Assembly: GCA_016219835.1 (NCBI GenBank)
Contig: JACRKL010000128.1
Location: 1 to 32,064, forward strand
Source of the DNA: Candidatus Woesearchaeota archaeon
GTDB lineage: Archaea; Nanobdellota; Nanobdellia; Woesearchaeales; JACRKL01
DNA: 32,064 nt
Reading direction: 5' to 3'
The translations under genes and the position numbers were made by a program. Each line of letters begins with the position of its first letter. Position 1 is the stretch's first letter. Positions 15,567-30,525 of the stretch are shown here, one piece after another. The notes beneath the pieces are model-generated. The model saw only the letters and a program-made list of their open reading frames with translations, did not search any database and had not been told where the DNA came from.

Positions 15567-15760
15567 GATCTCGACAGAAAATCTGAAAATCCTTCGGATT
15601 TCGTCAGAGCCTGCCGAAAGGGCTCTGTAGAAAGTCTCGCTATCGCTCGACTGAGCAGCTCAAAACCTTCGCTTCTGCTTTCTAATAATCGACATTCCCC
15701 GTAAGGGGCATCCCGATGCATCTACGCTCCGGTTTTTGACGAGAAAATCACAAGATAGAG
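15567..15760. repeat. cluster of degenerate fragments of the MITE termini
   Basis: Three fragments resemble the MITE ends. At 15567-15611, GATCTCGACAGAAAATC...GGATTTCGTCAGAGCC forms an inverted mini-pair. At 15621-15640, GGCTCTGTAGAAAGTCTCGC resembles the 5' end GGCTCTGACGAAAATCACGC. At 15731-15760, GGTTTTTGACGAGAAAATCACAAGATAGAG resembles the 5' end plus the CGCAAGATGCGAG hairpin. Confidence 0.45.
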
Positions 15761-15762
15761 AT

Positions 15763-16581
15763 TCACTCAAACACCATCCCCCGCGCATCTTTTCCTTCCA
15801 TTATACCAACAACATGATGATCTTTCAGAGTCAACGTTCCGTTCTCGTGAAGTTGCTGTACTATAGGAGAAGATTGATCCACCATAAAAGAAGTGTACCT
15901 AAAACGACCAGCTGCATATGTACCTTTGAAGAGAAAAATACCCTTGTCGGAGTATACAGCAAGTGTACGAAGATGGATTTCCATGGATCTAGACACTCGG
16001 GGATCATCCTCATGGATCAGCTGAAGCCTTCTTTCAGCCATCTTCAAAGACTCATTGCAATGAAACGAACATGGGCAATGGCTCAACGTCGGGAAATCAA
16101 AGTACCGCCCGAAAATGTTCATGGGGAAAGGAGCAGTATCTCCTACCGTGTTGTCAAAAGCAGGAAGCACAAAGTCGTTGTTCTTTTGCTCTTCTTGCTG
16201 ATGATGCTTCTTAAAGAATGAGCAACAGCATGATGGATAACCCAGAACGTTGCCCAAGCCAAGATGATCCTGCCGTTGTTCCAGAAAAGCAGCACGATCG
16301 GCATCCTCTTTTGTGAGAGATGCATAGAACAGCTGCGACGTCTGCTTGTTCTGTTCTCTGGGAATCAGATAGCCTTTGCTTGAATACCCGCCACTTGACG
16401 AAGATCCGACTGCCGCTCCCCAGCAGAACGCAATTTTGTTTGAGGTACAATAGTTCTCAACACCTTTCTGAAGGTGCTCCGGAATGATCATCCTTGCAAC
16501 GGGTTTTATTCCTGCAAGCACTTCCATAATCTCAAACGCCCTGCTCTGGTTGCCAAAGACCTGCATCAGATAAGGAATCAT
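15763..16581 (-). CDS. hypothetical Cys-motif protein (GYPSCCCSFF ... SHCPCSFHC)
   Basis: 272-aa ORF. Minus-strand CTATTTAAG (16603-16611) lies 22-30 nt upstream of the ATG. Clustered Cys/His motifs suggest metal binding. Any resemblance to archaeal DUF483-type GYPxCC proteins is a vague recollection only. Confidence 0.55.
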   Translation of the reverse strand: MIPYLMQVFGNQSRAFEIMEVLAGIKPVARMIIPEHLQKGVENYCTSNKIAFCWGAAVGSSSSGGYSSKGYLIPREQNKQTSQLFYASLTKEDADRAAFLEQRQDHLGLGNVLGYPSCCCSFFKKHHQQEEQKNNDFVLPAFDNTVGDTAPFPMNIFGRYFDFPTLSHCPCSFHCNESLKMAERRLQLIHEDDPRVSRSMEIHLRTLAVYSDKGIFLFKGTYAAGRFRYTSFMVDQSSPIVQQLHENGTLTLKDHHVVGIMEGKDARGMVFE

Positions 16582-16625
16582 AGGTACTCAAGAGGATGAT
16601 TACTTAAATAGATGATGTCTGCACT

Positions 16626-16789
16626 GGCTCTGGTGAAAATCTCGCAAGATGCGAGGTTCTGCCATCGGTTCGCATGGTTTCTGGGTATTCTGCTAGCGGA
16701 AATTCCCATTGGAATTCCCTTTCCGCCTGAATGGTTTATGCTACTGATGCTCACATGAGGATGGCAGAACTGACATTTTCACCGGAGCC
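16626..16789. mobile_element. MITE-like non-autonomous element, copy A (164 bp)
   Basis: The terminal inverted repeats are GGCTCTGGTGAAAAT (16626-16640) and ATTTTCACCGGAGCC (16775-16789). An inner pair is GTTCTGCCATC (16656-16666) and GATGGCAGAAC (16760-16770). It is flanked by the perfect 9-bp direct repeat GTCTGCACT (16617-16625 and 16790-16798). It has no ORF, and its ends are homologous to copy B. Confidence 0.8.
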
Positions 16790-17177
16790 GTCTGCACTTA
16801 GAAATATGCAACGCCGGTGCGATGATACTGCCCTCGATCATGCACCAGAGGAAAAGCAAGCCCAGAGCTAATGAAAAGAGAAGTGTTGATGACAGCATCA
16901 GACAGAGAACAAAGAAGACAAGTACACGAACTCGAGAGAAAAAACGCTGCATGATGATCTGCAAGCCAAAAGCAAGAAGCACTGCTGCAGGAAGCGGTGC
17001 CATGGTAGAAAAAAAGGACATCAGAAGGGCAAACGTGATACCGTGACTTGTGAAACGAAGGTACGACATTCCATAAGCAATCTCTTCATGAGCAAGCAAG
17101 GCAAGCACGACCCCAGTTATCACCCCTAAACCTGTAGAAAACAAGATAATCAAAACAACGAAGAGTAAGGAAGTCAT
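16779..17177 (-). CDS. small multi-TM membrane protein (hypothetical); 3' end rewritten by MITE copy A
   Basis: The start is taken at ATG 17177 (MTSLLFVVLI...), with AGTATATAATTTTTAC 21-36 nt upstream. The last 3 codons and the stop (16779-16790) come from the MITE. Confidence 0.5.
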   Translation of the reverse strand: MTSLLFVVLIILFSTGLGVITGVVLALLAHEEIAYGMSYLRFTSHGITFALLMSFFSTMAPLPAAVLLAFGLQIIMQRFFSRVRVLVFFVLCLMLSSTLLFSLALGLLFLWCMIEGSIIAPALHISKCRRLR

Positions 17178-17287
17178 ACGTTCATGCCAATATGCTAGTA
17201 TATAATTTTTACCTTCGAGGTAATGACAATATTTATAAAGAGGTTTCTCTTCAATCAAGATTAATTGTCACAGAGGGGGGGTTTAGA

Positions 17288-18079
17288 ATGGCATTTTCCA
17301 AAACGTTTCTTGACGACGTCAAGAGAAAATTTGATTTGAATATTTATGAAGCAAAGATATGGACTGCTTTGCTTTCCAGGGGCATTGCATCTGCAGGGAC
17401 ATTGTCTGAGATTTCTAATGTGCCAAGATCAAGGAGCTACGACGTTCTTGAGAGTTTAGAAAAGAAAGGATTTGTGATTATGAAATTAGGAAAGCCGATC
17501 AACTACATTGCCGTTCCTCCGGAAGAAGTCGTCAAGCGCATGAAGCAGGAAATTAAGAAGCATGCAGAACAGCATGCAGAGACATTGCAGACGATCAAGG
17601 AGATGGATGTCTTTTCCGAGCTGGAATTGCTCTACAAGAACGGCATCGAACACATTGATCCGACCGATATGAGCGGCGCAGTTGTGGGAAGAGAAGCGAT
17701 TACTGCTTTTGTCAAGCATGCGATGCGCGATGCTAAAAAAAGTATTACCATTGTAACGACAAAAAATGCGTTCACCCGAAAAGTTAGCATGCTCAAGAGC
17801 GCGTACAAAAAAGCAGGCAACAAGAGCATCAAGATTACGTTTGTTGGACCAGTGGATGGAAGAGCAGAGCATATCCTCAAGTCTATGTCAGCTAATGTAG
17901 CAGTGCACAGTCATGACAAGATCAAAGGAAGGTTTATCATCATCGACAACGAACTGATGATCTTCATGATGTACGACAGCCAGAAGGATTTGCATCCGAG
18001 CTATGAAGTAGCGATCTGGACCAAAGCACCGTTCTTCGTGAAGTCGTTTGAGAATTTAGTGCATCTGGCGGCGAAGTAG
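17288..18079 (+). CDS. TrmB family transcriptional regulator
   Basis: N-terminal wHTH: LNIYEAKIWTALLSRGIASAGTLSEISNVPRSRSYDVLESLEKKGFV, then the coiled linker and C-terminal domain typical of TrmB. ATG 17288 has a G-rich SD at 17273-17280 and ATATTTATAAAG at 17229-17240. Confidence 0.8.
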   Translation: MAFSKTFLDDVKRKFDLNIYEAKIWTALLSRGIASAGTLSEISNVPRSRSYDVLESLEKKGFVIMKLGKPINYIAVPPEEVVKRMKQEIKKHAEQHAETLQTIKEMDVFSELELLYKNGIEHIDPTDMSGAVVGREAITAFVKHAMRDAKKSITIVTTKNAFTRKVSMLKSAYKKAGNKSIKITFVGPVDGRAEHILKSMSANVAVHSHDKIKGRFIIIDNELMIFMMYDSQKDLHPSYEVAIWTKAPFFVKSFENLVHLAAK

Positions 18080-19346: not shown

Positions 19347-20084
19347 TTACTTTTTCGCGATCTTCCAGAGAAACATAAAGTGGTCGATATAGCTCTGCGC
19401 TATTTGTCTATTCTCTAGGATTATGGTCGTGAAAGGTTTTGTAAAATCAACAAGAAACACTTTGCTTCCTGCGATCATCGTCCTTACCGGTGCAATAAAC
19501 TCCGAAGGCAAATATCTAATCTCTGCATGCGGCTGTTGTTGTCGATGACCTTGAGCAAAAATAAGCAGCGTCTTGAGCTTGTGTTTCTTTTCAGCGTCAA
19601 AGAATGCTTTAAGGTCATGAGGGAAAAATTGAACAAAGGGATTTTCCTGCGTTCCATAACCATAATTGTACCCTGTTTCTTTGCTTCCTTCTGCAAGCTC
19701 TTTGAGCACTATTTGTGGTCCCTGATTGCCAAGATACATTCTAACGTTGCTATGCTCTGACTTGTTTGCCTGTTTTGCTTTGATAACTGAGATAAGAGCA
19801 ACCATTTCCTGCTGCGCATCTTGAATTTCAATCTTCTTCTCCTCAAGAAAGTCAACAAGACGCTCAGGCGGCGTTGCTTGGTAGTGTCTAACACCTTCTT
19901 TTTCAATAAAGCTAGCAAGACCCTTATTCAGCAGTTTTTGGAGAACATCATAAACTTTCGAACTCGCAAGGTTTGATCTCTTGATGATCGCGCCTGCCTT
20001 AGTCTCACCAGACTCAATAAGCAGTTCGTAGATCTCGCTCTCTCCCTTGGTAAGCCCAATCTTGTGCAGTTTTTCTTTAATCAT
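19347..20084 (-). CDS. TrmB family transcriptional regulator (paralog of 28690..29424)
   Basis: LTKGESEIYELLIESGETKAGAIIKRSNLASSKVYDVLQKLLNKGLASFIEKEGVRHYQATPPERL. The start is trimmed to ATG 20084, with AATTATATAAATG 19-31 nt upstream. Confidence 0.8.
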   Translation of the reverse strand: MIKEKLHKIGLTKGESEIYELLIESGETKAGAIIKRSNLASSKVYDVLQKLLNKGLASFIEKEGVRHYQATPPERLVDFLEEKKIEIQDAQQEMVALISVIKAKQANKSEHSNVRMYLGNQGPQIVLKELAEGSKETGYNYGYGTQENPFVQFFPHDLKAFFDAEKKHKLKTLLIFAQGHRQQQPHAEIRYLPSEFIAPVRTMIAGSKVFLVDFTKPFTTIILENRQIAQSYIDHFMFLWKIAKK

Positions 20085-20172
20085 AAAGGAAGAGATATCC
20101 TGAATTATATAAATGTTCTCCATTAAGGGGGGAGTAATATTTATATCCCAGATACCATTACTCAATAACAAC

Positions 20173-21234
20173 ATGGCAGATGAAGAACATATTCAGAGTA
20201 TAGAATCTTGGCTTAGAAGACTCATAGGACGACCTCTGCGAGAAAGAAATCAGGCAGCATATCATGAGTATAGAAAGCAACATAAAAGTGAGATAGGTAC
20301 GACGCTCCTATCTGATGACCTCATGAGCAGATGTAGTGGGTATGGTTCCATCTTTGAATCCATTATCCCAACGGATAAGATAGATCACTTTTATCATATC
20401 CCTAACTATCTCTGGCAAAAGCATATAACTGAAGGTACACCACTTGAAAAGCTTGTCCCTGAGAAAGCAGCTGCCATCCTGGAAGAAGTTGGAGATAACC
20501 TTGAGAGAAAACTCAGCCTTGATTGGGATCTTGCTGCTACGCACGCGCTTCTTGAGAATAACTTTTTCAGCCTTGTAGGGTATAAACAGTTTGTTGAAGG
20601 GTCATTTCCTCTAAGAGTAGATACCAGATATCGGGAACTAAATATCCCGTTTCATGAGTTTGTCTGGCACTCTTTTCTGTTTGCATCGCAGAGCGGCGGA
20701 ATCTATTACTGGAAACCTAGGGAGGCTGTTTGTCTAAAGGTTAGCGAATTTGATGAATACGAGAAGGACATAACAGCTATGCCAACAACATGGAACATGC
20801 TAAAAGCGGATGAATATGATAGAGAAAGGCGCCTTCTTAGAGAGATGATGTTTGTTCCGCTTGAGTCTGAACTAGATAAGCTGTGCCTTGAATTAACAGG
20901 TCCTGTTACAAAGCAAGGAAGAATGTTAGTGATAAAAACACTTGAGAGGCTGAACTTTGAAGAGGAAAATCAAAGACCGGTAGCTGTCGAAGAAGGTAAA
21001 GATAGTTTTTCAGGAAGAGATCTGTTGGTTATGAAATATGACAAGAGTCCTTATCCAACAAGACCTGGTGATGCAACTGATTTTCAAATACTCTATAAGC
21101 AGCCAATAGGCAAAGGTAACCCACTCTCTATTAGAAACGCTGATCCAAGATGTGGTTATGATGGTATAATGGATATCAGAGAGAGTAAGCTTATTGGTGA
21201 TAGAGCTATCCCATATCAGGGATGGGAGTTTTGA
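20173..21234 (+). CDS. hypothetical protein (353 aa)
   Basis: The start is at ATG 20173, with AATATTTATAT 27-37 nt upstream. It is divergent from the TrmB gene. No family recognised. Confidence 0.55.
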   Translation: MADEEHIQSIESWLRRLIGRPLRERNQAAYHEYRKQHKSEIGTTLLSDDLMSRCSGYGSIFESIIPTDKIDHFYHIPNYLWQKHITEGTPLEKLVPEKAAAILEEVGDNLERKLSLDWDLAATHALLENNFFSLVGYKQFVEGSFPLRVDTRYRELNIPFHEFVWHSFLFASQSGGIYYWKPREAVCLKVSEFDEYEKDITAMPTTWNMLKADEYDRERRLLREMMFVPLESELDKLCLELTGPVTKQGRMLVIKTLERLNFEEENQRPVAVEEGKDSFSGRDLLVMKYDKSPYPTRPGDATDFQILYKQPIGKGNPLSIRNADPRCGYDGIMDIRESKLIGDRAIPYQGWEF

Positions 21235-21292: not shown

Positions 21293-23875
21293 CTAAAGCT
21301 CCTTCTTCCCTTTCTTCAGCTCAATCTTCGCCAATACCATCTCATGCATCCTGCGCAGGAATTCAACTTTCTCCTCGATCTTGATCACATCGGTAAATCC
21401 CTGGACATACAGGTTGAAAGCGAATGGACTGGGAATTTGTGTCGTAATTTCCGTTAGCGTGATATCCCCAGATTCAATGTTAGTAAGTACCTCTTGTGCA
21501 TGAGGCAAGTCCATGAGATCATTAAGCACTTCTCTTCTTGCTTCTTTCAAGATGGGGAATTGTTCTGAAATTCTTCTCACGGCAGCCAAGAGTAACTGTG
21601 AGCTGACTTGTTGCATGCCTACACGCTTGCGATGGCCACGGTAATTGCGGAGGATCATTAATGCTCTTCCAGCACAATGTCGGAATCTTCGCTTTAAGAT
21701 TTCCGTTTTATCGAGGGCAAGTTCCATCGTGCCACGAAGTTCGTTTGCTTTGAGCATTTGCAATGCTTTTTTTGCATCAACCCTGCTCTCCGAAGCGATG
21801 GAAAAGCCGTGGTCATTAATCCCGATTTCCACATCACGGTGCTGCATTCTTGCAATCGCAAAAGCAACAGCTCTTGCCAACACGTCATTAACTCTTCTGC
21901 CATAGAGCGCATGGAAAAAATAATACTCTCTGCCTTTCTCCTCCTCAAAATGCTCGATGAGCATGTTTTTATCGTTGGGAATAACAGCATAGGCAAACTG
22001 CTCTTTCATGTAATCATAGAGTGCATGGGCGCTGTTCTGATCTGCATAGACATAGCGGTTTATGAAGGCAAGGATTTCCTCCTCGGTCTCTCCTGCGGTA
22101 AATTTTTCACGCAGCAATCTTCGGAATTTGCCGATGTCGAGAGCAAGGTCATAACTCAACGGCAACATCTCACTTGCCCATGACGGAATCGTTGGAGGTC
22201 TCATGACTGAAGCGGTAACTTGTGCAACCATACCTCTGGCAAATTGAAATTCATATTTCTCTCCGCCCAAGACAAAGACATCTCCGCGTTTTAAGCGTTC
22301 GAGAAATGCTTCATCAATATGACCTACGGCATGATCGCCTACTTTGACGGTGATAAATGATTCATCCGGAATCGTCCCCACATTCGTCATGTACATTACT
22401 CTGCTCATCATGCCTTTCTTTCCGATCTTTCCTTCATTGCGCCAGATTTTTGCATAGACATGACGATCTTCCAGCGATGCATACGCACCGGAAAGATAGT
22501 CCAAGATTTCGTTAAATGTCTGCTTGGAGAGACCCTGATAGCAGTAGCTTCTCCGCAAGACGCCAAGCAAGAGATCTTCATCCCACACTTGCTCAATGGC
22601 CATACCAAAAATCTGCTGTGCTAAGACATCAAGGCTGCTTTTCGGAATGTTGATGCGGTCTATTTTTTGTTCTAGCGCGTTCTTGAGCAGGACGCTGCAT
22701 TCGACGAGATCATCGCGATCAAGCACGATGATTCTTCCTTTTGCAACTTCATGCAGCTTGTGACCACTTCTGCCAATGCGCTGCAAGCATCGGGCAATGC
22801 TCTTTGGACTACCCAAGAGAATGACGAGATCAATAAAACCGATGTCAATGCCTAACTCCAGCGAGGTTGAAGTTACCACCACTTTCAGCTTACCCTGACG
22901 CAAGCTGTCCTCGATGTGGTATCTTGTTTCTTTGGAAAGGCTGCCGTGATGCGCACCGATATTTTCCAGGTATTTTGCCGGGAACTTTTCTTTAAGATGG
23001 TTAACGACACGCTCGGTTGCAGCTCTGGTGTTCGTGAAGATAAGCGTTGTTTTATGTTCTTGAATCAGTGAGTCAATCATCTCATACATCTTGCGATGCA
23101 ACGTTTCATGCGGCGTATCAATAATGTTGGAGACGGGACAGAGCACTTGGAGATCCATCTTCTTGATGAACTTGACATCGATGAGATCGCAGGGACGATC
23201 AACACCAACCAAGAAACGAGCGACTTCATCTAAGGGAGAGACAGTAGCACTCAACCCAATTCTGCACATGCCCTGCGAGTGAAAATGCAAACGCTCGAGA
23301 CTGAGTGAGAGATGGACACCTCGCTTGTTTTCTGCTAAGGCGTGCACTTCATCGACAATGCACCATTCGACCTGCTTCAAGTTTTCAATAAATTTGCTGC
23401 TGCTGAGCATGATTGCCAAGCTTTCAGGAGTCGTGATGAGAATGTGTGGCGGTTTTTTGAGCATGGCAGATTTTTCTGACGCTGATGTATCACCCGTTCT
23501 GGTTGCAACGCGAATGCCTAATGGTTTGCCGGCGAGCTCTTCCATTTCTTTTAAGGGAGTGGTAAGGTTGACTTCAATATCCCGAGAGAGTGCTTTAAGT
23601 GGATTAACATAAACACAATAGACTTTGTTCTCGAGAGCATTACGCTCGGAGAGACCGATGAGCTCATTGAGGATCGCTCCAAACGCACACAAGGTCTTAC
23701 CACTGCCCGTCGGAGCGCTGACTAAGGTGTTGATCCTGCAATGGACGTTATACATGGCATAGCGCTGCGGCTCGCTGAGCTCTTTAAACTTGTTGAAGAA
23801 CCACTTCCTGAACAACGACTGCATCATGCCTTTGGTCAGATTATCATCATGTGGCTCAGTTAAGAGGCGGATCAT
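21293..23875 (-). CDS. lhr: Lhr-like large ATP-dependent helicase
   Basis: APTGSGKT (motif I), VDEVH (II), LSAT (III) and QRIGRSGH (VI), plus a long C-terminal Lhr/DEAD-associated region. The start is set at ATG 23875 (M57 of the track ORF) for two reasons. GTTTAAAAGC lies 21-30 nt upstream of it, and the longer ORF reads into MITE copy B. ATG 23827 is an alternative start. Confidence 0.85.
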   Translation of the reverse strand: MIRLLTEPHDDNLTKGMMQSLFRKWFFNKFKELSEPQRYAMYNVHCRINTLVSAPTGSGKTLCAFGAILNELIGLSERNALENKVYCVYVNPLKALSRDIEVNLTTPLKEMEELAGKPLGIRVATRTGDTSASEKSAMLKKPPHILITTPESLAIMLSSSKFIENLKQVEWCIVDEVHALAENKRGVHLSLSLERLHFHSQGMCRIGLSATVSPLDEVARFLVGVDRPCDLIDVKFIKKMDLQVLCPVSNIIDTPHETLHRKMYEMIDSLIQEHKTTLIFTNTRAATERVVNHLKEKFPAKYLENIGAHHGSLSKETRYHIEDSLRQGKLKVVVTSTSLELGIDIGFIDLVILLGSPKSIARCLQRIGRSGHKLHEVAKGRIIVLDRDDLVECSVLLKNALEQKIDRINIPKSSLDVLAQQIFGMAIEQVWDEDLLLGVLRRSYCYQGLSKQTFNEILDYLSGAYASLEDRHVYAKIWRNEGKIGKKGMMSRVMYMTNVGTIPDESFITVKVGDHAVGHIDEAFLERLKRGDVFVLGGEKYEFQFARGMVAQVTASVMRPPTIPSWASEMLPLSYDLALDIGKFRRLLREKFTAGETEEEILAFINRYVYADQNSAHALYDYMKEQFAYAVIPNDKNMLIEHFEEEKGREYYFFHALYGRRVNDVLARAVAFAIARMQHRDVEIGINDHGFSIASESRVDAKKALQMLKANELRGTMELALDKTEILKRRFRHCAGRALMILRNYRGHRKRVGMQQVSSQLLLAAVRRISEQFPILKEARREVLNDLMDLPHAQEVLTNIESGDITLTEITTQIPSPFAFNLYVQGFTDVIKIEEKVEFLRRMHEMVLAKIELKKGKKEL

Positions 23876-23943
23876 GGAAGAATAATGCTGATGCAGTTTA
23901 AAAGCATTATGGGGGCGGTTGACCAGTGGAAGAACAACAAAGA

Positions 23944-24158
23944 GGCTCTGACGAAAATCACGCAAGATGCGAGGTTCTGCCATCGGTTCGCATGATTTAG
24001 GGTTCATTTGCTGGCGAGAATTCTTGCGAAGCAAGTGTATCACTCGAGCTGACCTTAGTCCTCGAGTGATTTCACCTCTGGAACACCCTTCTCGCTCAAA
24101 CCGATTCTTCTAAGAATGCTCACAGAAGGATGGCAGAACTAACATTTTCGTCAGAGCC
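23944..24158. mobile_element. MITE-like non-autonomous element, copy B (215 bp)
   Basis: The perfect 15-bp terminal inverted repeats are GGCTCTGACGAAAAT (23944-23958) and ATTTTCGTCAGAGCC (24144-24158). The inner pair is GTTCTGCCATC / GATGGCAGAAC. It is flanked by the perfect 9-bp direct repeat CAACAAAGA (23935-23943 and 24159-24167). About 50 nt at the 5' end and about 45 nt at the 3' end are homologous to copy A. The centre differs from copy A and is rich in hairpins. Confidence 0.8.
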
Positions 24159-24209
24159 CAACAAAGAAAAAGGATTATATAGATAACACATTAATGGTTA
24201 TAACAAAAC

Positions 24210-25610
24210 ATGACACCGTCAACACGTGCTTCAGGGATAATCGCTGCATGCCAGAAGATCCAGAAGGCCTGCAGGGTTCTCTTGATACTAGAGAAGAGAT
24301 CGTTGGCAAAGAGCGAGCTCGTGGTGAAGAATGCAACGGCATTGTTGGATGTTGCACCGACAGGAGTTTTCTCTTGGGCATTTCAGGGCAAACAAAGAGC
24401 ATCAGACAAGGAGCGGATCTTTGAGGAAGTTGAGAAAGAACTGCAAAATCTGGGTACTATCCTTGAACTCCAGAATAAGTATCTCCTTATGGATTTTGGA
24501 AATGACACGGAAGAGGAAACTGTCCAATGGATACTCTCCCTTCCACTGCTCCATTCAGTTATAAACTCGCATGATGACAAGGAATTGCTTGAAGAGATCG
24601 TCTATAAGCATCCAGAAACAATCCGGCGCATTCTTGCCTGCCTTATGGAACACAAAGAGAAAGTTATGGCACAGGAAGCAGCAGCAAATCTGTTGTTCCG
24701 CCAGCTGAAAGAAATAGAAGAGAGATTCCGCAAGAGCCAAAATTATTTTCGGTTTGCCGAGCTGGAAGAGACAAGGAAGCAAGAAGTTACTGCTTGCGTG
24801 CAGTCGTTTCAAGAGCATTTTAAGCAGCTGGACAGGTTCGAGCATGAGCATCCGCTGGACGGGGCATCCTTCCGTCTCGGAGAGATGGCGAGGGAAGCTT
24901 CAAGAATCGTTGCTGAGAATCGGGAGATAGAACGACTATTTAATCAGAGAGATCTTGCAGAACTCAAGGAGCTGGCAGGACAGCAGGCAAAGAGAGAACA
25001 GGATAAGATTGCCTACTTTAACCGGAAGCTGGAGGAGATGCGACGGCTTCAGCTAAATTTCCGTCCAGAGCAGCTCATTGCAGTGCATGTAACAAACCAT
25101 TTTCCGGAAAACGGAGTTATGAGAACAACTGGCCAGTTTACGGGCAAGATTTTTAGTAACGACAAGCGGTCGAAGGAACGGGAAGTCAAGTTTCCAAGGG
25201 AAACTATTCATTTTTCCCTCAACGGGAAAGTCGGCTCACATGTTTATGGAAACTGGGATTCAGTAAAGTTTGCGGTTCTTATTCCTGTTCATCTGATCAT
25301 GCAGCGGATTGTAAACCTAAATCCGGTTGATACTTATGTTGTTGGAGAATTGAATCTTCCGCATGGAAGTGAGATTATTGCGCGAGAAGAGGATGCGGTA
25401 GGACATCAGTTTGGGAATGCCAAATTTGTTCCGGTTCCGAATGGAAAGGCACTTGAAGAGGTGATTTCATTGCGCATAAAGGAACGCGGGTTTACGCCGA
25501 TGGGTGTTGGGATTGGATTGGTACAGAAGATAAAGGTGTGTTTGAAGCATATGCACGAGCTATCAAGGAAGAAGATGACTCCTTATATGATAAACGTTCT
25601 AGGGGTTTAA
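24210..25610 (+). CDS. large orphan protein, coiled-coil middle plus His-rich C-terminal domain (hypothetical)
   Basis: 466-aa ORF with GATTATATAGAT 26-37 nt upstream. It has a heptad-rich E/K/R/Q middle region, then a C-terminal domain HVTNHFPENG...RETIHFSLNGKVGSHVYGNW. No family recognised. Confidence 0.55.
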   Translation: MTPSTRASGIIAACQKIQKACRVLLILEKRSLAKSELVVKNATALLDVAPTGVFSWAFQGKQRASDKERIFEEVEKELQNLGTILELQNKYLLMDFGNDTEEETVQWILSLPLLHSVINSHDDKELLEEIVYKHPETIRRILACLMEHKEKVMAQEAAANLLFRQLKEIEERFRKSQNYFRFAELEETRKQEVTACVQSFQEHFKQLDRFEHEHPLDGASFRLGEMAREASRIVAENREIERLFNQRDLAELKELAGQQAKREQDKIAYFNRKLEEMRRLQLNFRPEQLIAVHVTNHFPENGVMRTTGQFTGKIFSNDKRSKEREVKFPRETIHFSLNGKVGSHVYGNWDSVKFAVLIPVHLIMQRIVNLNPVDTYVVGELNLPHGSEIIAREEDAVGHQFGNAKFVPVPNGKALEEVISLRIKERGFTPMGVGIGLVQKIKVCLKHMHELSRKKMTPYMINVLGV

Positions 25611-26054: not shown

Positions 26055-26855
26055 TTATTCTTTCCTCTCAAGCGTCCGGTAAACGCTGTACAGTTGGGTG
26101 TACTGATCCCTCGTCATCGTACGCTTTTCAAGCAGCTCGCTCGCTTGGTTTACCAAGGCATGAAGCTCCACCATCGGGCGTTCAACTTGTTCTTTCTGCT
26201 CAACGAGTCCCATGATTTTTGCATCATACGTTGCAATAACGTTTGCTTTCAAGCCGTTTATAGTATGTGGATCAAGGAAGCTGGTATCATTCTTGCTGCT
26301 GTACCGGTGCCTGTTATTGAGGTACTCCTTTACACGTCTTGGATCTCCTGCCTTTCCAAATAGGAAATCATACGACGGAAAAGAAACCTTGTATTTGACG
26401 TCTATCGCTTCCAGATCATGTCCTCTTTGGGTTCTTAACTTATACATATCATTGCAAAGCTGGGCAACCGCCTTCAGTTCGTCAGGGAAGAGTTGCTCAT
26501 ATTCTTTGTCTCCAACATAAGGAATGAAGCGCTGACGCTGATAGGGATTCTCATGGCTGCCGTCGCCAAACAACTGCTGATAATGCTTCTCAACAGCTTC
26601 AGCAAGCTGGGGCTTGCCTAATTCTTTGAACAGGTGACTGATCGTTCTACTCTTCTTAAAGATCCCTTCCTTCTTGTGTTCTTCAAGACTGTTTTCAAGA
26701 TCCATACGTTTCTGCTTGAGTCTCTGCTGCTCTTGGTAACCTACGGAAGCTAATTCCACCACGGGTGCTTCGAGAGCTGCAACTGTAGGTTGTTCCTCTT
26801 GCTTCCCTTCAGATGCTACCGTTGGTTGTTTCCAGGTTTTGCTGAACAAGCTCAT
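26055..26855 (-). CDS. hypothetical protein (266 aa), second gene of a coupled pair
   Basis: Its ATG overlaps the stop of the upstream gene (4-nt overlap at 26852-26855). N-terminal MSLFSKTWK. No family recognised. Confidence 0.55.
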   Translation of the reverse strand: MSLFSKTWKQPTVASEGKQEEQPTVAALEAPVVELASVGYQEQQRLKQKRMDLENSLEEHKKEGIFKKSRTISHLFKELGKPQLAEAVEKHYQQLFGDGSHENPYQRQRFIPYVGDKEYEQLFPDELKAVAQLCNDMYKLRTQRGHDLEAIDVKYKVSFPSYDFLFGKAGDPRRVKEYLNNRHRYSSKNDTSFLDPHTINGLKANVIATYDAKIMGLVEQKEQVERPMVELHALVNQASELLEKRTMTRDQYTQLYSVYRTLERKE

Positions 26856-27889
26856 GGTTTCACCTGATTTGGTTGATACTTTGCAATCGTTGTTCTGATG
26901 AAGTCGAGCGCCTGAACATACGGCTGCTTATACGTTGCTTCAAGCTCACTGAACAAACGCTCATCATCTTCTTTCGTAGATCTCAGGGAAACAAAAGATC
27001 CCTGCTCATTCCACGTCCATTCTTTGCCGTGAGAACCATCAGAGAACAGATGTTGATCCTGAACATCGTCCATGGCGTAAATACTCCAGGGGCAACGATC
27101 AGATGGCTCATCCTTAAACAAGTGTTCAATAGATCGTGCATGATCCAGAACAGCCTCCATCTTTTCCGTAAGCTTGCCATAGTCTCCATAAGGCGCAAAC
27201 TTGAGAATCTCACCAACTTTTTCCAGGACAGCATTCTCCACACCATGCCCATACGCCAAGAGAATGGCGTAGTTGATAGCAGCACTCCATTGCTTGCTTC
27301 CCTTTTCTTCTTCCCATGTATCAAGGTAAGCTTCAATTATTTTTCCGGTGCTGAACCCATAAGTATTACCAGCCATTTTATAGCCCATGTTTGATCGAGC
27401 ATCACGGAATGCTTCATACTGTTCTCCATGATGGTTTCCCGAGGTGTTATACACAAATGGTGTACCAGCATCGTCCAAGAGCTTTCCGAGGTTCAGTGCA
27501 CCATGTGACGTCGGCTGTTCACCTGCTTTCAAAGGAAAGAAAATATCAGACGCCACTGCATGAAATCTCTTTTGCTGAAGATGCTGTTCTGCTTCTTCGT
27601 ACGTTGAAGCAAATGTGAAATTGATGCCGACACACTGCGAAGCAGTACTCTTGGCATCTGCAAGATGCTTGGGGGTGTCTTCGATGATTAGCATCTCCAA
27701 AGAACCTGAGCCAATAGCTAAAGGAGGTGGCACAATTCGGTGGTGTTCTTCTGGTGCTGGCTCTGGGACAGCTGCCTGTGCTGATGCTTTCAAGACATCT
27801 GGAGATGGAGATACCTGAAGCGGTCCTTCTGTTCTCTGCTTCTTCATTCCATATCCAAATATATTCTTCATACTCTGGTATAAGCTCAT
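26852..27889 (-). CDS. hypothetical protein with receiver (REC)-like segment
   Basis: GGAGG lies 7 nt upstream of ATG 27889. LEMLIIEDTPKHLADAK...FTFASTYEEAEQHLQQKRFHAVASDIFFP follows the beta1 acidic pair / beta3 Asp pattern of CheY-like receivers. The remaining roughly 220 aa are unrecognised. Confidence 0.5.
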   Translation of the reverse strand: MSLYQSMKNIFGYGMKKQRTEGPLQVSPSPDVLKASAQAAVPEPAPEEHHRIVPPPLAIGSGSLEMLIIEDTPKHLADAKSTASQCVGINFTFASTYEEAEQHLQQKRFHAVASDIFFPLKAGEQPTSHGALNLGKLLDDAGTPFVYNTSGNHHGEQYEAFRDARSNMGYKMAGNTYGFSTGKIIEAYLDTWEEEKGSKQWSAAINYAILLAYGHGVENAVLEKVGEILKFAPYGDYGKLTEKMEAVLDHARSIEHLFKDEPSDRCPWSIYAMDDVQDQHLFSDGSHGKEWTWNEQGSFVSLRSTKEDDERLFSELEATYKQPYVQALDFIRTTIAKYQPNQVKP

Positions 27890-28307: not shown

Positions 28308-28693
28308 TCCTGGATACCTCTATTCTCATCGATATTGAACAAGAAGTTCCGGAAACGTTACACGCTTTAGCAGAAATTGTGCGCTATGAGCAACATCCTG
28401 CAAGCATCAGTTTCATGAGCTACTTTGAATTTCTCTATGGCTTGAGGAACCAGTCCTATCAAGTCAAACAGGAGAAAACTGCTTGGCTGAGGAAGTTTTT
28501 GTGCCTTGAAGCGGGGCTTCACACTGCTGAAATTCTTGCTGAACTGAGGCAGCGCTATGCGACAAAAGGGAAACCTTTACCTCTTGCAGATATGATCATT
28601 GCCGCTCAGACAAAGGAACACCACCTCACGTTGGTAACCAAAGATAAACTGTTTGACAAGATCGAAGAGATAAAGGCGATAGTGATCACATGA
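28298..28693 (+). CDS. vapC: PIN-domain ribonuclease toxin VapC
   Basis: MALILDTSILID (first catalytic Asp), FEFLYG, LADMIIAA and TKDKLF together give the PIN acidic quartet pattern. 131 aa. Confidence 0.85.
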   Translation: MALILDTSILIDIEQEVPETLHALAEIVRYEQHPASISFMSYFEFLYGLRNQSYQVKQEKTAWLRKFLCLEAGLHTAEILAELRQRYATKGKPLPLADMIIAAQTKEHHLTLVTKDKLFDKIEEIKAIVIT

Positions 28694-29424
28694 ACATCTC
28701 CATCCTTGAAGACATTGGATTAACAAATGCAGAGATCAAAGTATATCTCGCACTTCTGGAAATTGGAAGCTCAACTGCTGGCCCTATCATCGAGAAAAGT
28801 CAACTCCAAAGTTCTGTCGTGCACATGACGCTGAACAAGCTGGTTGAGAAAGGATTGCTCTCGTTTGTCAAAGAAGGTCAGAGAAAGCATTATCAGGCAG
28901 CAAATCCTCAGCACATTACCGATTACCTTGACGAGAAAAAGAAACGCTTCGAACAAATTCTTCCCGAGCTGATGCTGAAGCAAGAACTCGCAAAGCAAAA
29001 ATCTGAGGTGATTGCGTTCAAAGGAATTAAGGGTATTAAGGAACTTCTGCTAGAGCTTCTGGAAGCTGGAGGATCTGAGCATCATACCTTTGGCTCCAGC
29101 AGTGTGTCGCTGATGATCAACGATGCATGGTGGGTTAACTACCACAAAAAACGAGCAGAGAAAGGCATTACTGCAAAACTGTTGTTCAACGCATCGCTGG
29201 TATCGTGGAAAGCTGAATCAAAATATCCAAAGTCCGAAGTGCGCTATACCAAAGCAGGATTTGAACCACTAACGGAAACCATTATCCGTAATGACAAGAT
29301 AGGCATCATCATCTGGACAGAAAAACCCATGGGCACATTAATCCACAGCAAGGAAGCTGCTGATTCGTATGAGCAGTTCTTTCAAATGCTATGGGGTAGA
29401 GCTAACACCACCAAGAAAAAATAA
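28690..29424 (+). CDS. TrmB family transcriptional regulator
   Basis: LTNAEIKVYLALLEIGSSTAGPIIEKSQLQSSVVHMTLNKLVEKGLLSFVKEGQRKHYQAANPQHI. Its ATG overlaps the vapC TGA (ATGA at 28690-28693). It has the same architecture as 19347..20084. Confidence 0.8.
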   Translation: MNISILEDIGLTNAEIKVYLALLEIGSSTAGPIIEKSQLQSSVVHMTLNKLVEKGLLSFVKEGQRKHYQAANPQHITDYLDEKKKRFEQILPELMLKQELAKQKSEVIAFKGIKGIKELLLELLEAGGSEHHTFGSSSVSLMINDAWWVNYHKKRAEKGITAKLLFNASLVSWKAESKYPKSEVRYTKAGFEPLTETIIRNDKIGIIIWTEKPMGTLIHSKEAADSYEQFFQMLWGRANTTKKK

Positions 29425-30413: not shown

Positions 30414-30525
30414 AGAAGAAGGATCAGCCAGCAAAGGCGGGAGACTGATCTTCGATCCTATCCCATACCCCGTAGGGGGCATCCCCCTCAGGATCTCCGC
30501 CAAGGCTGGCATCTCTAAGAATATC

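Follow-up and report, generated by a model that had tools for sequence, protein, structure and literature searches.

A large family of candidate miniature inverted-repeat transposable elements at a fixed distance upstream of BRE/TATA sequences in Woesearchaeota-type archaea

In the 32,064-nucleotide contig JACRKL010000128.1 of a Candidatus Woesearchaeota archaeon (assembly GCA_016219835.1; this whole stretch is called the window below), the gene for the Lhr helicase and a gene starting at 24210 point away from each other, and the region between them holds a 215-bp palindromic segment framed by a 9-bp direct repeat. What is this segment, and why does it lie just there? An earlier note, made from the letters of the sequence, took it for the second copy of a mobile element with terminal inverted repeats (TIRs) and a target-site duplication (TSD), placed in a divergent promoter region; copy A, at 16626-16789, was the other. 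The family data given below support that view. [quoted passage not shown] Copy B and its immediate surroundings comprise the following features.

23944-24158, plus strand (the top strand of the element is the plus strand of the window): MITE copy B, 215 bp, supported by the covariance model R1 and the fold
23944-23958, plus strand: left TIR, 15 bp, GGCTCTGACGAAAAT
24144-24158, minus strand: right TIR, 15 bp, exact reverse complement of the left one
23935-23943, no strand: left 9-bp TSD, CAACAAAGA, identical to 24159-24167
24159-24167, no strand: right 9-bp TSD, CAACAAAGA, identical to 23935-23943
23974-23984, plus strand: second inverted repeat, GTTCTGCCATC, pairing with 24129-24139 and co-varying across the family (helices 3 and 4)
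24129-24139, plus strand: partner arm of the second inverted repeat, GATGGCAGAAC; a Logan contig of SRR12113407 begins exactly there
24014-24020 and 24089-24095: hairpin arms GCGAGAA/TTCTCGC
24024-24074, plus strand: extra 51-nt segment with no counterpart in copy A, within the family central motif and with its own hairpin at 24040-24069
24040-24069: hairpin TCACTCGAG/CTCGAGTGA
24168-24181, plus strand: BRE-like AAAAGG, then TATA box ATTATATA of the 24210 gene (putative promoter)
24210-25610, plus strand: 466-aa gene with no Pfam match, whose promoter is the insertion target of copy B

The perfect 15-bp termini and the 9-bp duplication lie where the note had placed them. Within the window, zero-mismatch matches to GGCTCTGACGAAAAT were found only at the two ends of copy B, and CAACAAAGA occurs twice, solely as the TSDs of copy B; the latter count is weak evidence when taken alone, because two or more occurrences arose in 9 of 100 shuffles. 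The combined pattern of the TIR and the sub-terminal repeat gave four matches in the window versus none in 100 shuffles. The covariance model R1, which was built on 16 metagenome copies with the window copies excluded, matched copy B over its full length on the plus strand with 63.7 bits and an E value of 1.9e-14. The ends of copies B and A align as the note had described, with 94% identity in the first 51 nt and, close to the right end, 91% in a stretch of 34 nt, and the second inverted repeat GTTCTGCCATC is common to both ends in the two copies. Both fold into long hairpins when the whole element is considered (z = -8.9 for copy B and -7.2 for copy A). The internal hairpin assigned in the note to 24040-24068 is present and runs one base longer, ending at 24069. 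No open reading frame (ORF) confined to copy B appears in the 60-aa ORF list, where only a spurious extension of the Lhr frame enters the element, and no internal BRE/TATA was seen on reading its sequence.

Is copy B one of many? The note had named additional copies as a check, and many were found beyond the window. The metagenome census used a pattern of two TIRs only, set 131-191 nt apart, and yielded at least 120 loci with a TIR-to-TIR match. The family TIR consensus is GGCTCTGTAGAAAAT, in which positions G1, G2, C3, T4, C5, G7, G10 and A11-14 are invariant, the same bases being fixed by the search pattern. Lengths over the at least 120 loci have their mode at 162-166 bp (the basic form is 164 bp) and a second group near 204-213 bp. 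Up to four copies occur in a single 10-kb locus, and the window copies fall in the largest similarity cluster. Flanking 9-bp repeats with no more than two mismatches accompany 63 of 113 non-redundant insertions versus none of 118 displaced controls. The 9-bp duplication is perfect in 44 cases, and 8 bp is the longest exact flanking match in five elements only. In locus L051 two elements stand in tandem and share one 9-bp target, in the order gtttttaag-E1-gtttttaag-E2-gtttttaag. The TSD statistics and this TSD-E1-TSD-E2-TSD array demonstrate insertion. Copy B and its family are short and non-coding, carry TIRs, are flanked by a TSD of constant length and variable sequence, and occur in many contexts, as is expected of MITEs.

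These data also bear on the simplest alternative, that the segment is immobile and represents a chance palindrome or an operator of the divergent lhr/24210 promoters. It is indeed palindromic, and it does lie between two divergent promoters. However, more than 100 related copies exist in unrelated contexts with variable 9-bp flanks, and R1 recognizes copy B at an E value of about 1e-14; the family data refute the idea of an immobile segment, to which we attach practically no probability.

The second element of the tandem pair in L051 (1338-1494) has the TIR GGCTTCCCTGAAAAT at one end and ATTTTCAGGGAAGCC at the other, with joint changes of the two ends at positions 5-9; despite its differing TIR, this element shares its 9-bp target with its neighbor. 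Some clusters that match the TIR pattern, namely L008, L022, L068, L087, L099 (GC 0.66-0.68), L010, L013, L025 and their relatives, lie on GC-rich or otherwise different contigs. They show neither 9-bp duplications nor an association with TATA sequences; either they are palindromes of separate origin, or they could represent relatives from different hosts. Viral contigs gave no TIR-to-TIR match; four single-end matches there were taken as chance, since they lie among long phage-like ORFs and have no model match. A scan with the TIR plus GTTCTGCCATC gave one chance match in species-representative genomes, within a coding sequence of a Lachnospiraceae metagenome-assembled genome (MAG), and none in JGI metagenomes.

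Where, then, do the elements insert? Outward from the element end on one side, the flank consists of the 9-bp TSD, nnAAAn and TTTAWATA. Under a strict test, 41 of the 156 flanks, which belong to 41 of the 78 elements, have a TATA-like 8-mer starting at offset 16; this exceeds the control rate (0.0024 per offset) about 110-fold, and the counts of 4 at offset 15, 41 at 16, 10 at 17 and 4 at 18 give way to background thereafter. On this side the frequency of A is 0.80-0.84 at positions 12-13 and that of T is 0.82-0.92 at positions 16-18, whereas the flank opposite the promoter is flat and carries no motif. The absence of the motif from the opposite flank means that recognition is one-sided, and a symmetric sequence preference of the transposase was rejected on the same ground. 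In 25 of 36 cases an outward start codon follows the TATA sequence at a distance of 29-32 nt. Near-canonical boxes stand at this offset in many of the elements that did not pass the strict test, and by eye about four in five elements abut a promoter. In 381 element-free genes of the same contigs the same BRE/TATA is present at -37 to -23, with a TATA peak at -30 and a BRE-like AgaAAna; the motif is therefore the ordinary leaderless-gene promoter of these organisms. Low-GC subfamilies with the same TIR and a different interior also obey the offset rule, whereas the GC-rich ones do not.

Could this spacing result from selection after insertion rather than from targeting? The contigs are gene-dense, 71 of 78 copies are intergenic, and divergent intergenic regions are somewhat over-represented (22 of 57), all of which would suit such an explanation. 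It does not fit a peak at a single nucleotide offset. On the side away from the promoter, spare DNA is usual (median 25 nt to a stop codon and 74 nt to a divergent start codon), and in 5 of 15 cases the stop of the upstream gene lies inside the TSD or the element. Given the spare DNA on the one hand and the clipped upstream genes on the other, the precision is not accounted for by the survival of insertions at harmless sites. Tandem arrays spaced by exactly 9 bp, moreover, are explained if one promoter was used repeatedly, with the same 9 bp each time. We thus consider post-insertion selection a very improbable source of the fixed spacing, and targeted insertion is the reading that we follow here.

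Both window copies obey the offset-16 rule. To the right of copy B, the element end at 24158 is followed by the TSD at 24159-24167, AAAAGG at 24168-24173, ATTATATA starting at 24174 and the ATG at 24210. The note had remarked in passing that a TATA-like box lies about 5 bp beyond the right duplicate; the box is there, the spacing is 6 nt, and the remark turns out to have touched the defining target feature of the family. The corresponding features of copy A are as follows.

16617-16798, plus strand: copy A with its TSDs, a 164-bp element at 16626-16789; TSD GTCTGCACT at 16617-16625 and 16790-16798
16603-16610, minus strand: TATA-like TATTTAAG, 29 nt upstream of the ATG at 16581; counted from copy A's left end, it starts at offset 16

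R1 matched copy A over its full length with 67.6 bits, and its ends are GGCTCTGGTGAAAAT and ATTTTCACCGGAGCC. Read outward on the minus strand, the TSD is followed by ATCATC and then by TATTTAAG from 16610 (offset 16), and the target is the promoter of a 272-aa gene at 15763-16581 (minus strand, ATG at 16581). This gene, which stands between copy A and a truncated copy C described below, was considered as a transposase and rejected. Its only match is a weak one to DUF483, and copy A is flanked by a duplication of its own, so that we regard the gene as belonging to the host. On the other side, an ORF at 16779-17258 (minus strand, 159 aa, no Pfam match) has its TGA stop inside the right TIR of copy A. 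It ends in KCRRLR and would end in KCRHHLFK without the element; the final residues of this upstream gene were apparently exchanged through the insertion, which places copy A in the class of insertions that clip the upstream gene.

The insertion of copy B lengthened the divergent region from 110 bp to 334 bp and left the core promoters of both Lhr and the 24210 gene intact. The Lhr side is defined by two features.

21293-23875, minus strand: Lhr helicase gene, 860 aa, starting with the ATG at 23875
23897-23903, minus strand: TATA-like TTTTAAA, a putative Lhr promoter, 40 bp away from the left end of copy B; the Lhr ATG follows about 25 nt downstream

The six-frame Lhr ORF (21293-24043, 916 aa) enters the element by 100 nt and adds 56 residues to the N-terminus, an inflation that the note had pointed out and that the ortholog starts, which match the ATG at 23875, bear out. 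The helicase domains recognized by Pfam begin at residue 88-92 of the 916-aa ORF. The implied N-terminus of 60 of 120 orthologs aligns with residue 57, and the closest ortholog starts with MIRLLDKPHDD as compared with MIRLLTEPHDD in the window. The Lhr gene accordingly spans 21293-23875, and the 56 residues contributed by the element and the adjoining flank are an artefact. The note had held that orthologs conserving the residues encoded by 23876-24043 would speak against it; starts at residue 57 were seen instead.

What mechanism would place an element so precisely? We propose that copy B was mobilized in trans by a transposase encoded elsewhere, which would cut the target with a 9-bp stagger. 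The 9-bp target lies 6 bp upstream of the TATA box and directly upstream of the BRE, and the end of the inserted element therefore comes to lie 15 bp upstream of the TATA box and about 46 nt upstream of the start codon of the leaderless gene, with the core promoter intact. Copy B used the promoter of the 24210 gene and copy A that of the 272-aa gene at 15763-16581. The enzyme would be a DDE transposase, with the IS5/IS903 type as the most likely choice. The site may be chosen by tethering to the complex of TATA-binding protein (TBP) and transcription factor B (TFB) with the promoter, or to its DNA bend, or alternatively by direct reading of the BRE/TATA sequence, and the hairpin may act in cis during transposition. 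A TSD at about -45 to -37 would lie near the upstream edge of the archaeal initiation complex. As a tentative proposal, which we hold to be possible and rather doubtful, the transposase could be guided by the archaeal pre-initiation complex (TBP/TFB on BRE/TATA, or its bend) and integrate at the upstream edge of that complex; the family could in this way spread a common upstream module.

The interior of the element has an architecture of its own. From outside in, it consists of the TIR, a short segment present on the left only, second and third stems, a central stem with a small hairpin, and a C-run; the consensus of the central region is ..CTGACATTCCCCGTAAGGGaCAACCCCCTTGTCAG.., and the conserved central motif is ..TGACATTCCCCGTAAGGGaCAACCCCCTTGTCA... 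Polarity is fixed, with R1 scores of 47-170 bits on the true strand versus about 24-40 on the reverse strand. Over 78 distinct sequences, 94.3% of the cells are paired as compared with 70% after shuffling and 38-47% with slid partners, and 44 of 45 pairs show changes on both sides; these counts come from an alignment fitted to the model structure, a fit that favors that structure. A plain MAFFT alignment already gives the same covariation for the TIR and the central stems. The long variants, of about 197-218 bp, have 45-50 extra nt in the form of hairpins, placed variously in or near the central motif (L004, L017, L048, L056, L065, L073, L075, L086 and 24024-24074 of the window). A derivation of the 51-nt insert of copy B and of similar inserts from the left end of the element was rejected, as the scores were no better than those of shuffles, one locus excepted. 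The central dyad and the C-run were also considered as an archaeal origin-recognition box and rejected by reasoning alone, because the dyad co-varies and the C/G-run is on the wrong side.

Such an interior raises the question of whether the element is chiefly a mobile structured-RNA gene or a cis-acting RNA module, with the TIR and the TSD as mere means of spread. Covariation is strong over the full length, polarity is strict, and the central motif is conserved, its hairpin having a GNRA-like loop (GTAA/GTA/GAA on one strand). Core hairpins without recognizable TIRs, at L035:6467-6586, L038:22-136 and possibly 30418-30512 of the window, point in the same direction. However, G-U (G-T) and A-C mismatches number 188 versus 142, without a clear strand asymmetry, and both strands fold about equally well. 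Orientation relative to the neighboring genes is unbiased (13 ++ and 8 --). Rfam 15 gave no match at the gathering score or at E values up to 1. Copy B has no internal BRE/TATA that we could see, and, as it stands between divergent promoters, coverage by a transcript of either gene is not expected. Selection at the RNA level is unsupported by the weak G-U/A-C asymmetry, the about equal folding of the strands and the lack of an orientation bias, and we rate an RNA-centered explanation as unlikely when set against a MITE. The three hairpins at L035, L038 and 30418-30512 contain the inner stems along with the central motif; either these are copies in decay whose core may have lasted longer than the ends, or the core may have its own role.

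Several further points weigh against a promoter-targeting MITE. The promoter status of the flanking BRE/TATA rests on sequence and spacing. The distance from the TATA box to the ATG on the right of copy B is 36 nt, outside the 29-32 nt mode of the family. No autonomous element or transposase was found in the approximately 820 kb of flanking DNA or in the window. An empty-site allele of the window was absent from the exact-protein look-ups, which returned one sample, and the genome has no close relative in the collections; no such allele was visible either at L096, where one place is shown and four others are collapsed with the same neighboring genes. Apart from these points, no report of TATA-anchored MITE insertion was found for archaea or bacteria in open-access text.

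Besides copies A and B, the window contains remnants of the family, giving a total of two complete copies and two to three remnants.

15621-15741, plus strand: copy C, truncated at the 3' end, with left TIR GGCTCTGTAGAAAGT and central motif CGACATTCCCCGTAAGGGGCATCCC at 15691-15716
15597-15611, minus strand: remnant of the right end of a fourth copy, GATTTCGTCAGAGCC, separated by 9 bp from copy C
30418-30512, plus strand: hairpin with the central motif CCCCGTAGGGGGCATCCCCC but no TIRs, possibly a decayed copy, between YggS-like and Lit-like genes

Copy C was recognized by R1 with E values of 4e-4 and 0.12, and by nhmmer with the central motif at 1.5e-5. The 9-bp gap between 15611 and 15621 is the same as the spacing in the intact tandem arrays of L051 and L054. 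The statistics for 30418-30512 are weak (R1 E 0.013, nhmmer E 0.012, fold z = -2.3). Exact-protein look-ups found the window genome otherwise only as short Logan contigs of SRR12113407 (L002, L125). These break at 24129 inside copy B, at 16654 inside copy A and at 15623 at the start of copy C, as repeats would be expected to cause. No 31-mer is common to the break at 15623 and the other copies of the window, which suggests further copies elsewhere in the genome.

The gene content agrees with an archaeal host. The window encodes eIF-6, aIF5A, prefoldin, the signal recognition particle GTPase, phosphoribosyl pyrophosphate synthase and three TrmB-type regulators; no tRNA gene was found in it. The best matches of Lhr are 64-65% identical, and those with names are from Woesearchaeota. 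Genes of the family loci include the archaeal replication factor C large subunit, and the pyruvate ferredoxin oxidoreductase (PFOR) gene at L096 shows 100% identity to its counterpart in a Nanoarchaeota MAG, followed in closeness by Woesearchaeota. The sampled low-GC hosts of the family are archaeal, and the one resolved to phylum is Nanoarchaeota/Woesearchaeota. Among the other genes of the window, the S-adenosylmethionine synthetase at 13325-14524 matches three MetK domains (PF00438, PF02772, PF02773); we take it to be the bacterial/eukaryotic type and not the usual archaeal enzyme, amid an archaeal gene set. The TrmB-family regulators lie at 17192-18079, 19347-20174 and 28690-29424, three within 12 kb. 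The neighboring genes 24210-25610, 20113-21234 and 26055-27889 have no family match.

What would such insertions mean for their hosts? With each one, a promoter receives the same TIR and structured element on its upstream side, from about -46 outward. If the proposed targeting is true, a shared upstream module, for example a regulator binding site, could be spread over many promoters of a small genome. Targeting that depends on TBP/TFB would also explain the persistence of transposons in DPANN genomes, tiny and gene-dense as these are, without gene destruction. The elements also mark promoters in uncultured archaea, and they affect annotation through false N-terminal extensions (Lhr), altered C-termini (the ORF ending in copy A) and assembly breaks.

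Which enzyme moves the family? No transposase gene was found in the window by Pfam. In the loci and the window, no inverted TIR pair 0.6-3.5 kb apart encloses a plausible transposase, and no ORFs lie beside solo ends. Searches with tblastn and phmmer found no IS903-type transposase in the loci or the window, a limited sample, and an IS26 query (an approximate sequence) gave nothing in the loci by the same programs; no protein recurs across the loci as a transposase would. As neither an autonomous element nor a transposase was found, we infer the enzyme class from likeness to known systems. In its TIR and 9-bp TSD the family is most like the IS903 group within the IS5 family; IS6 comes next. 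The IS903-type DDE transposase presumably corresponds to Pfam DDE_Tnp_1, and we take ISAba12, MITEAba12 and IS903 to be placed in the IS903 group of the IS5 family. The IS903-type TIR GGCTTTGTTGAATAAAT and the family TIR GGCTCTGT(A/T)GAAAAT agree at 12 of 14 positions, a similarity and not an identity, and the family shares with the IS903 group a 9-bp TSD and a TIR of the approximately 16-18 bp class beginning with GGC. According to PMC6382973, ISAba12 and MITEAba12 have the TIR GGCTTTGTTGCACAAA and 9-bp TSDs. The family resembles MITEAba12 in being a small non-coding TIR element with a 9-bp TSD, and the TIRs of MITEAba12/ISAba12 (PMC6382973) and of IS903 begin with GGCTTTGTTG... as compared with GGCTCTGT(A/T)G... 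here. No promoter-position rule for MITEAba12 is reported in the passages of that paper that were read. The present family further differs in its archaeal host, in the lack of a cognate transposase among our finds, and in its long co-varying hairpin with a conserved center.

An IS6/IS26-type or other partner enzyme is a less likely choice than the IS5/IS903 type, and still one to be considered seriously. The IS6/IS26 TIR consensus is GGTTCTGTTGCAAA, with conserved G1, G2, G7 and G10, bases that also occur in other IS families (PMC6807381). The family TIR matches it at 11-12 of 14 positions; the invariance of G1, G2, G7 and G10 in the family is not independent evidence, as the search pattern fixed these bases. 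The likeness extends to the CTGT..AAA pattern of the TIR, to the existence of archaeal members and to the MITEs MITEBth2 and MITEHarch3. IS6 members generally make 8-bp duplications, although the archaeal ISPfu5 is listed with a 9-bp TSD (PMC6807381). By contrast, the TSD here is 9 bp (44 perfect), IS6 elements form cointegrates, and no IS6-like protein was found in the loci.

MITEs are known in several archaea (review, PMC10969869), and a census reports a very high MITE density in one Woesearchaeal genome (PMC11602168). No named family with this TIR was found, an exact-string search of open-access papers having returned zero. This is a new MITE family, and its unusual property is its single-nucleotide positioning upstream of archaeal promoters; MITEs as such are ordinary, and the precision of insertion relative to BRE/TATA is the step beyond. 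Palindromic MITEs of bacteria include ERIC and Correia elements; the latter have promoters and IHF sites of their own and insert at a TA target. Like Correia elements (PMC10969869) and ERIC elements, the present family is of small size (about 100-160 bp in those elements), multicopy, mostly intergenic, often beside promoters and able to fold into long hairpins. Unlike Correia elements, it has no recognizable promoter of its own and keeps one fixed distance to the host promoter.

Insertion at a fixed offset from a recognized site that is left intact recalls Tn7. Tn7-like elements integrate a set distance away from a target selector bound to the DNA; they differ in using attTn7 or a guide RNA, a 5-bp TSD and a multi-protein machinery, whereas here there are apparently many sites per genome, potentially any promoter, and a TSD of 9 bp. 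Yeast Ty3 is directed by TFIIIB (TBP and Brf1), and Dictyostelium TRE5-A inserts about 48 bp upstream of tRNA genes. As in these cases, the family keeps one fixed insertion distance to the promoter, as seen in its one-sided peak at offset 16, and lies at a set distance from the place of the transcription-initiation complex, sparing genes in a compact genome. Ty3 and TRE5-A are retrotransposons that use an integrase or target-primed insertion at Pol III genes, whereas here a DNA element with TIR and TSD goes to promoters of protein genes, and the tether is hypothetical. The TFIIIB components by which Ty3 is directed have their archaeal homologues in TBP and TFB. If the positioning of the family does depend on TBP/TFB, integration steered by the initiation machinery would be older and wider than the eukaryotic retrotransposon cases, and the family would represent an archaeal DNA-transposon counterpart of Ty3/TFIIIB targeting.

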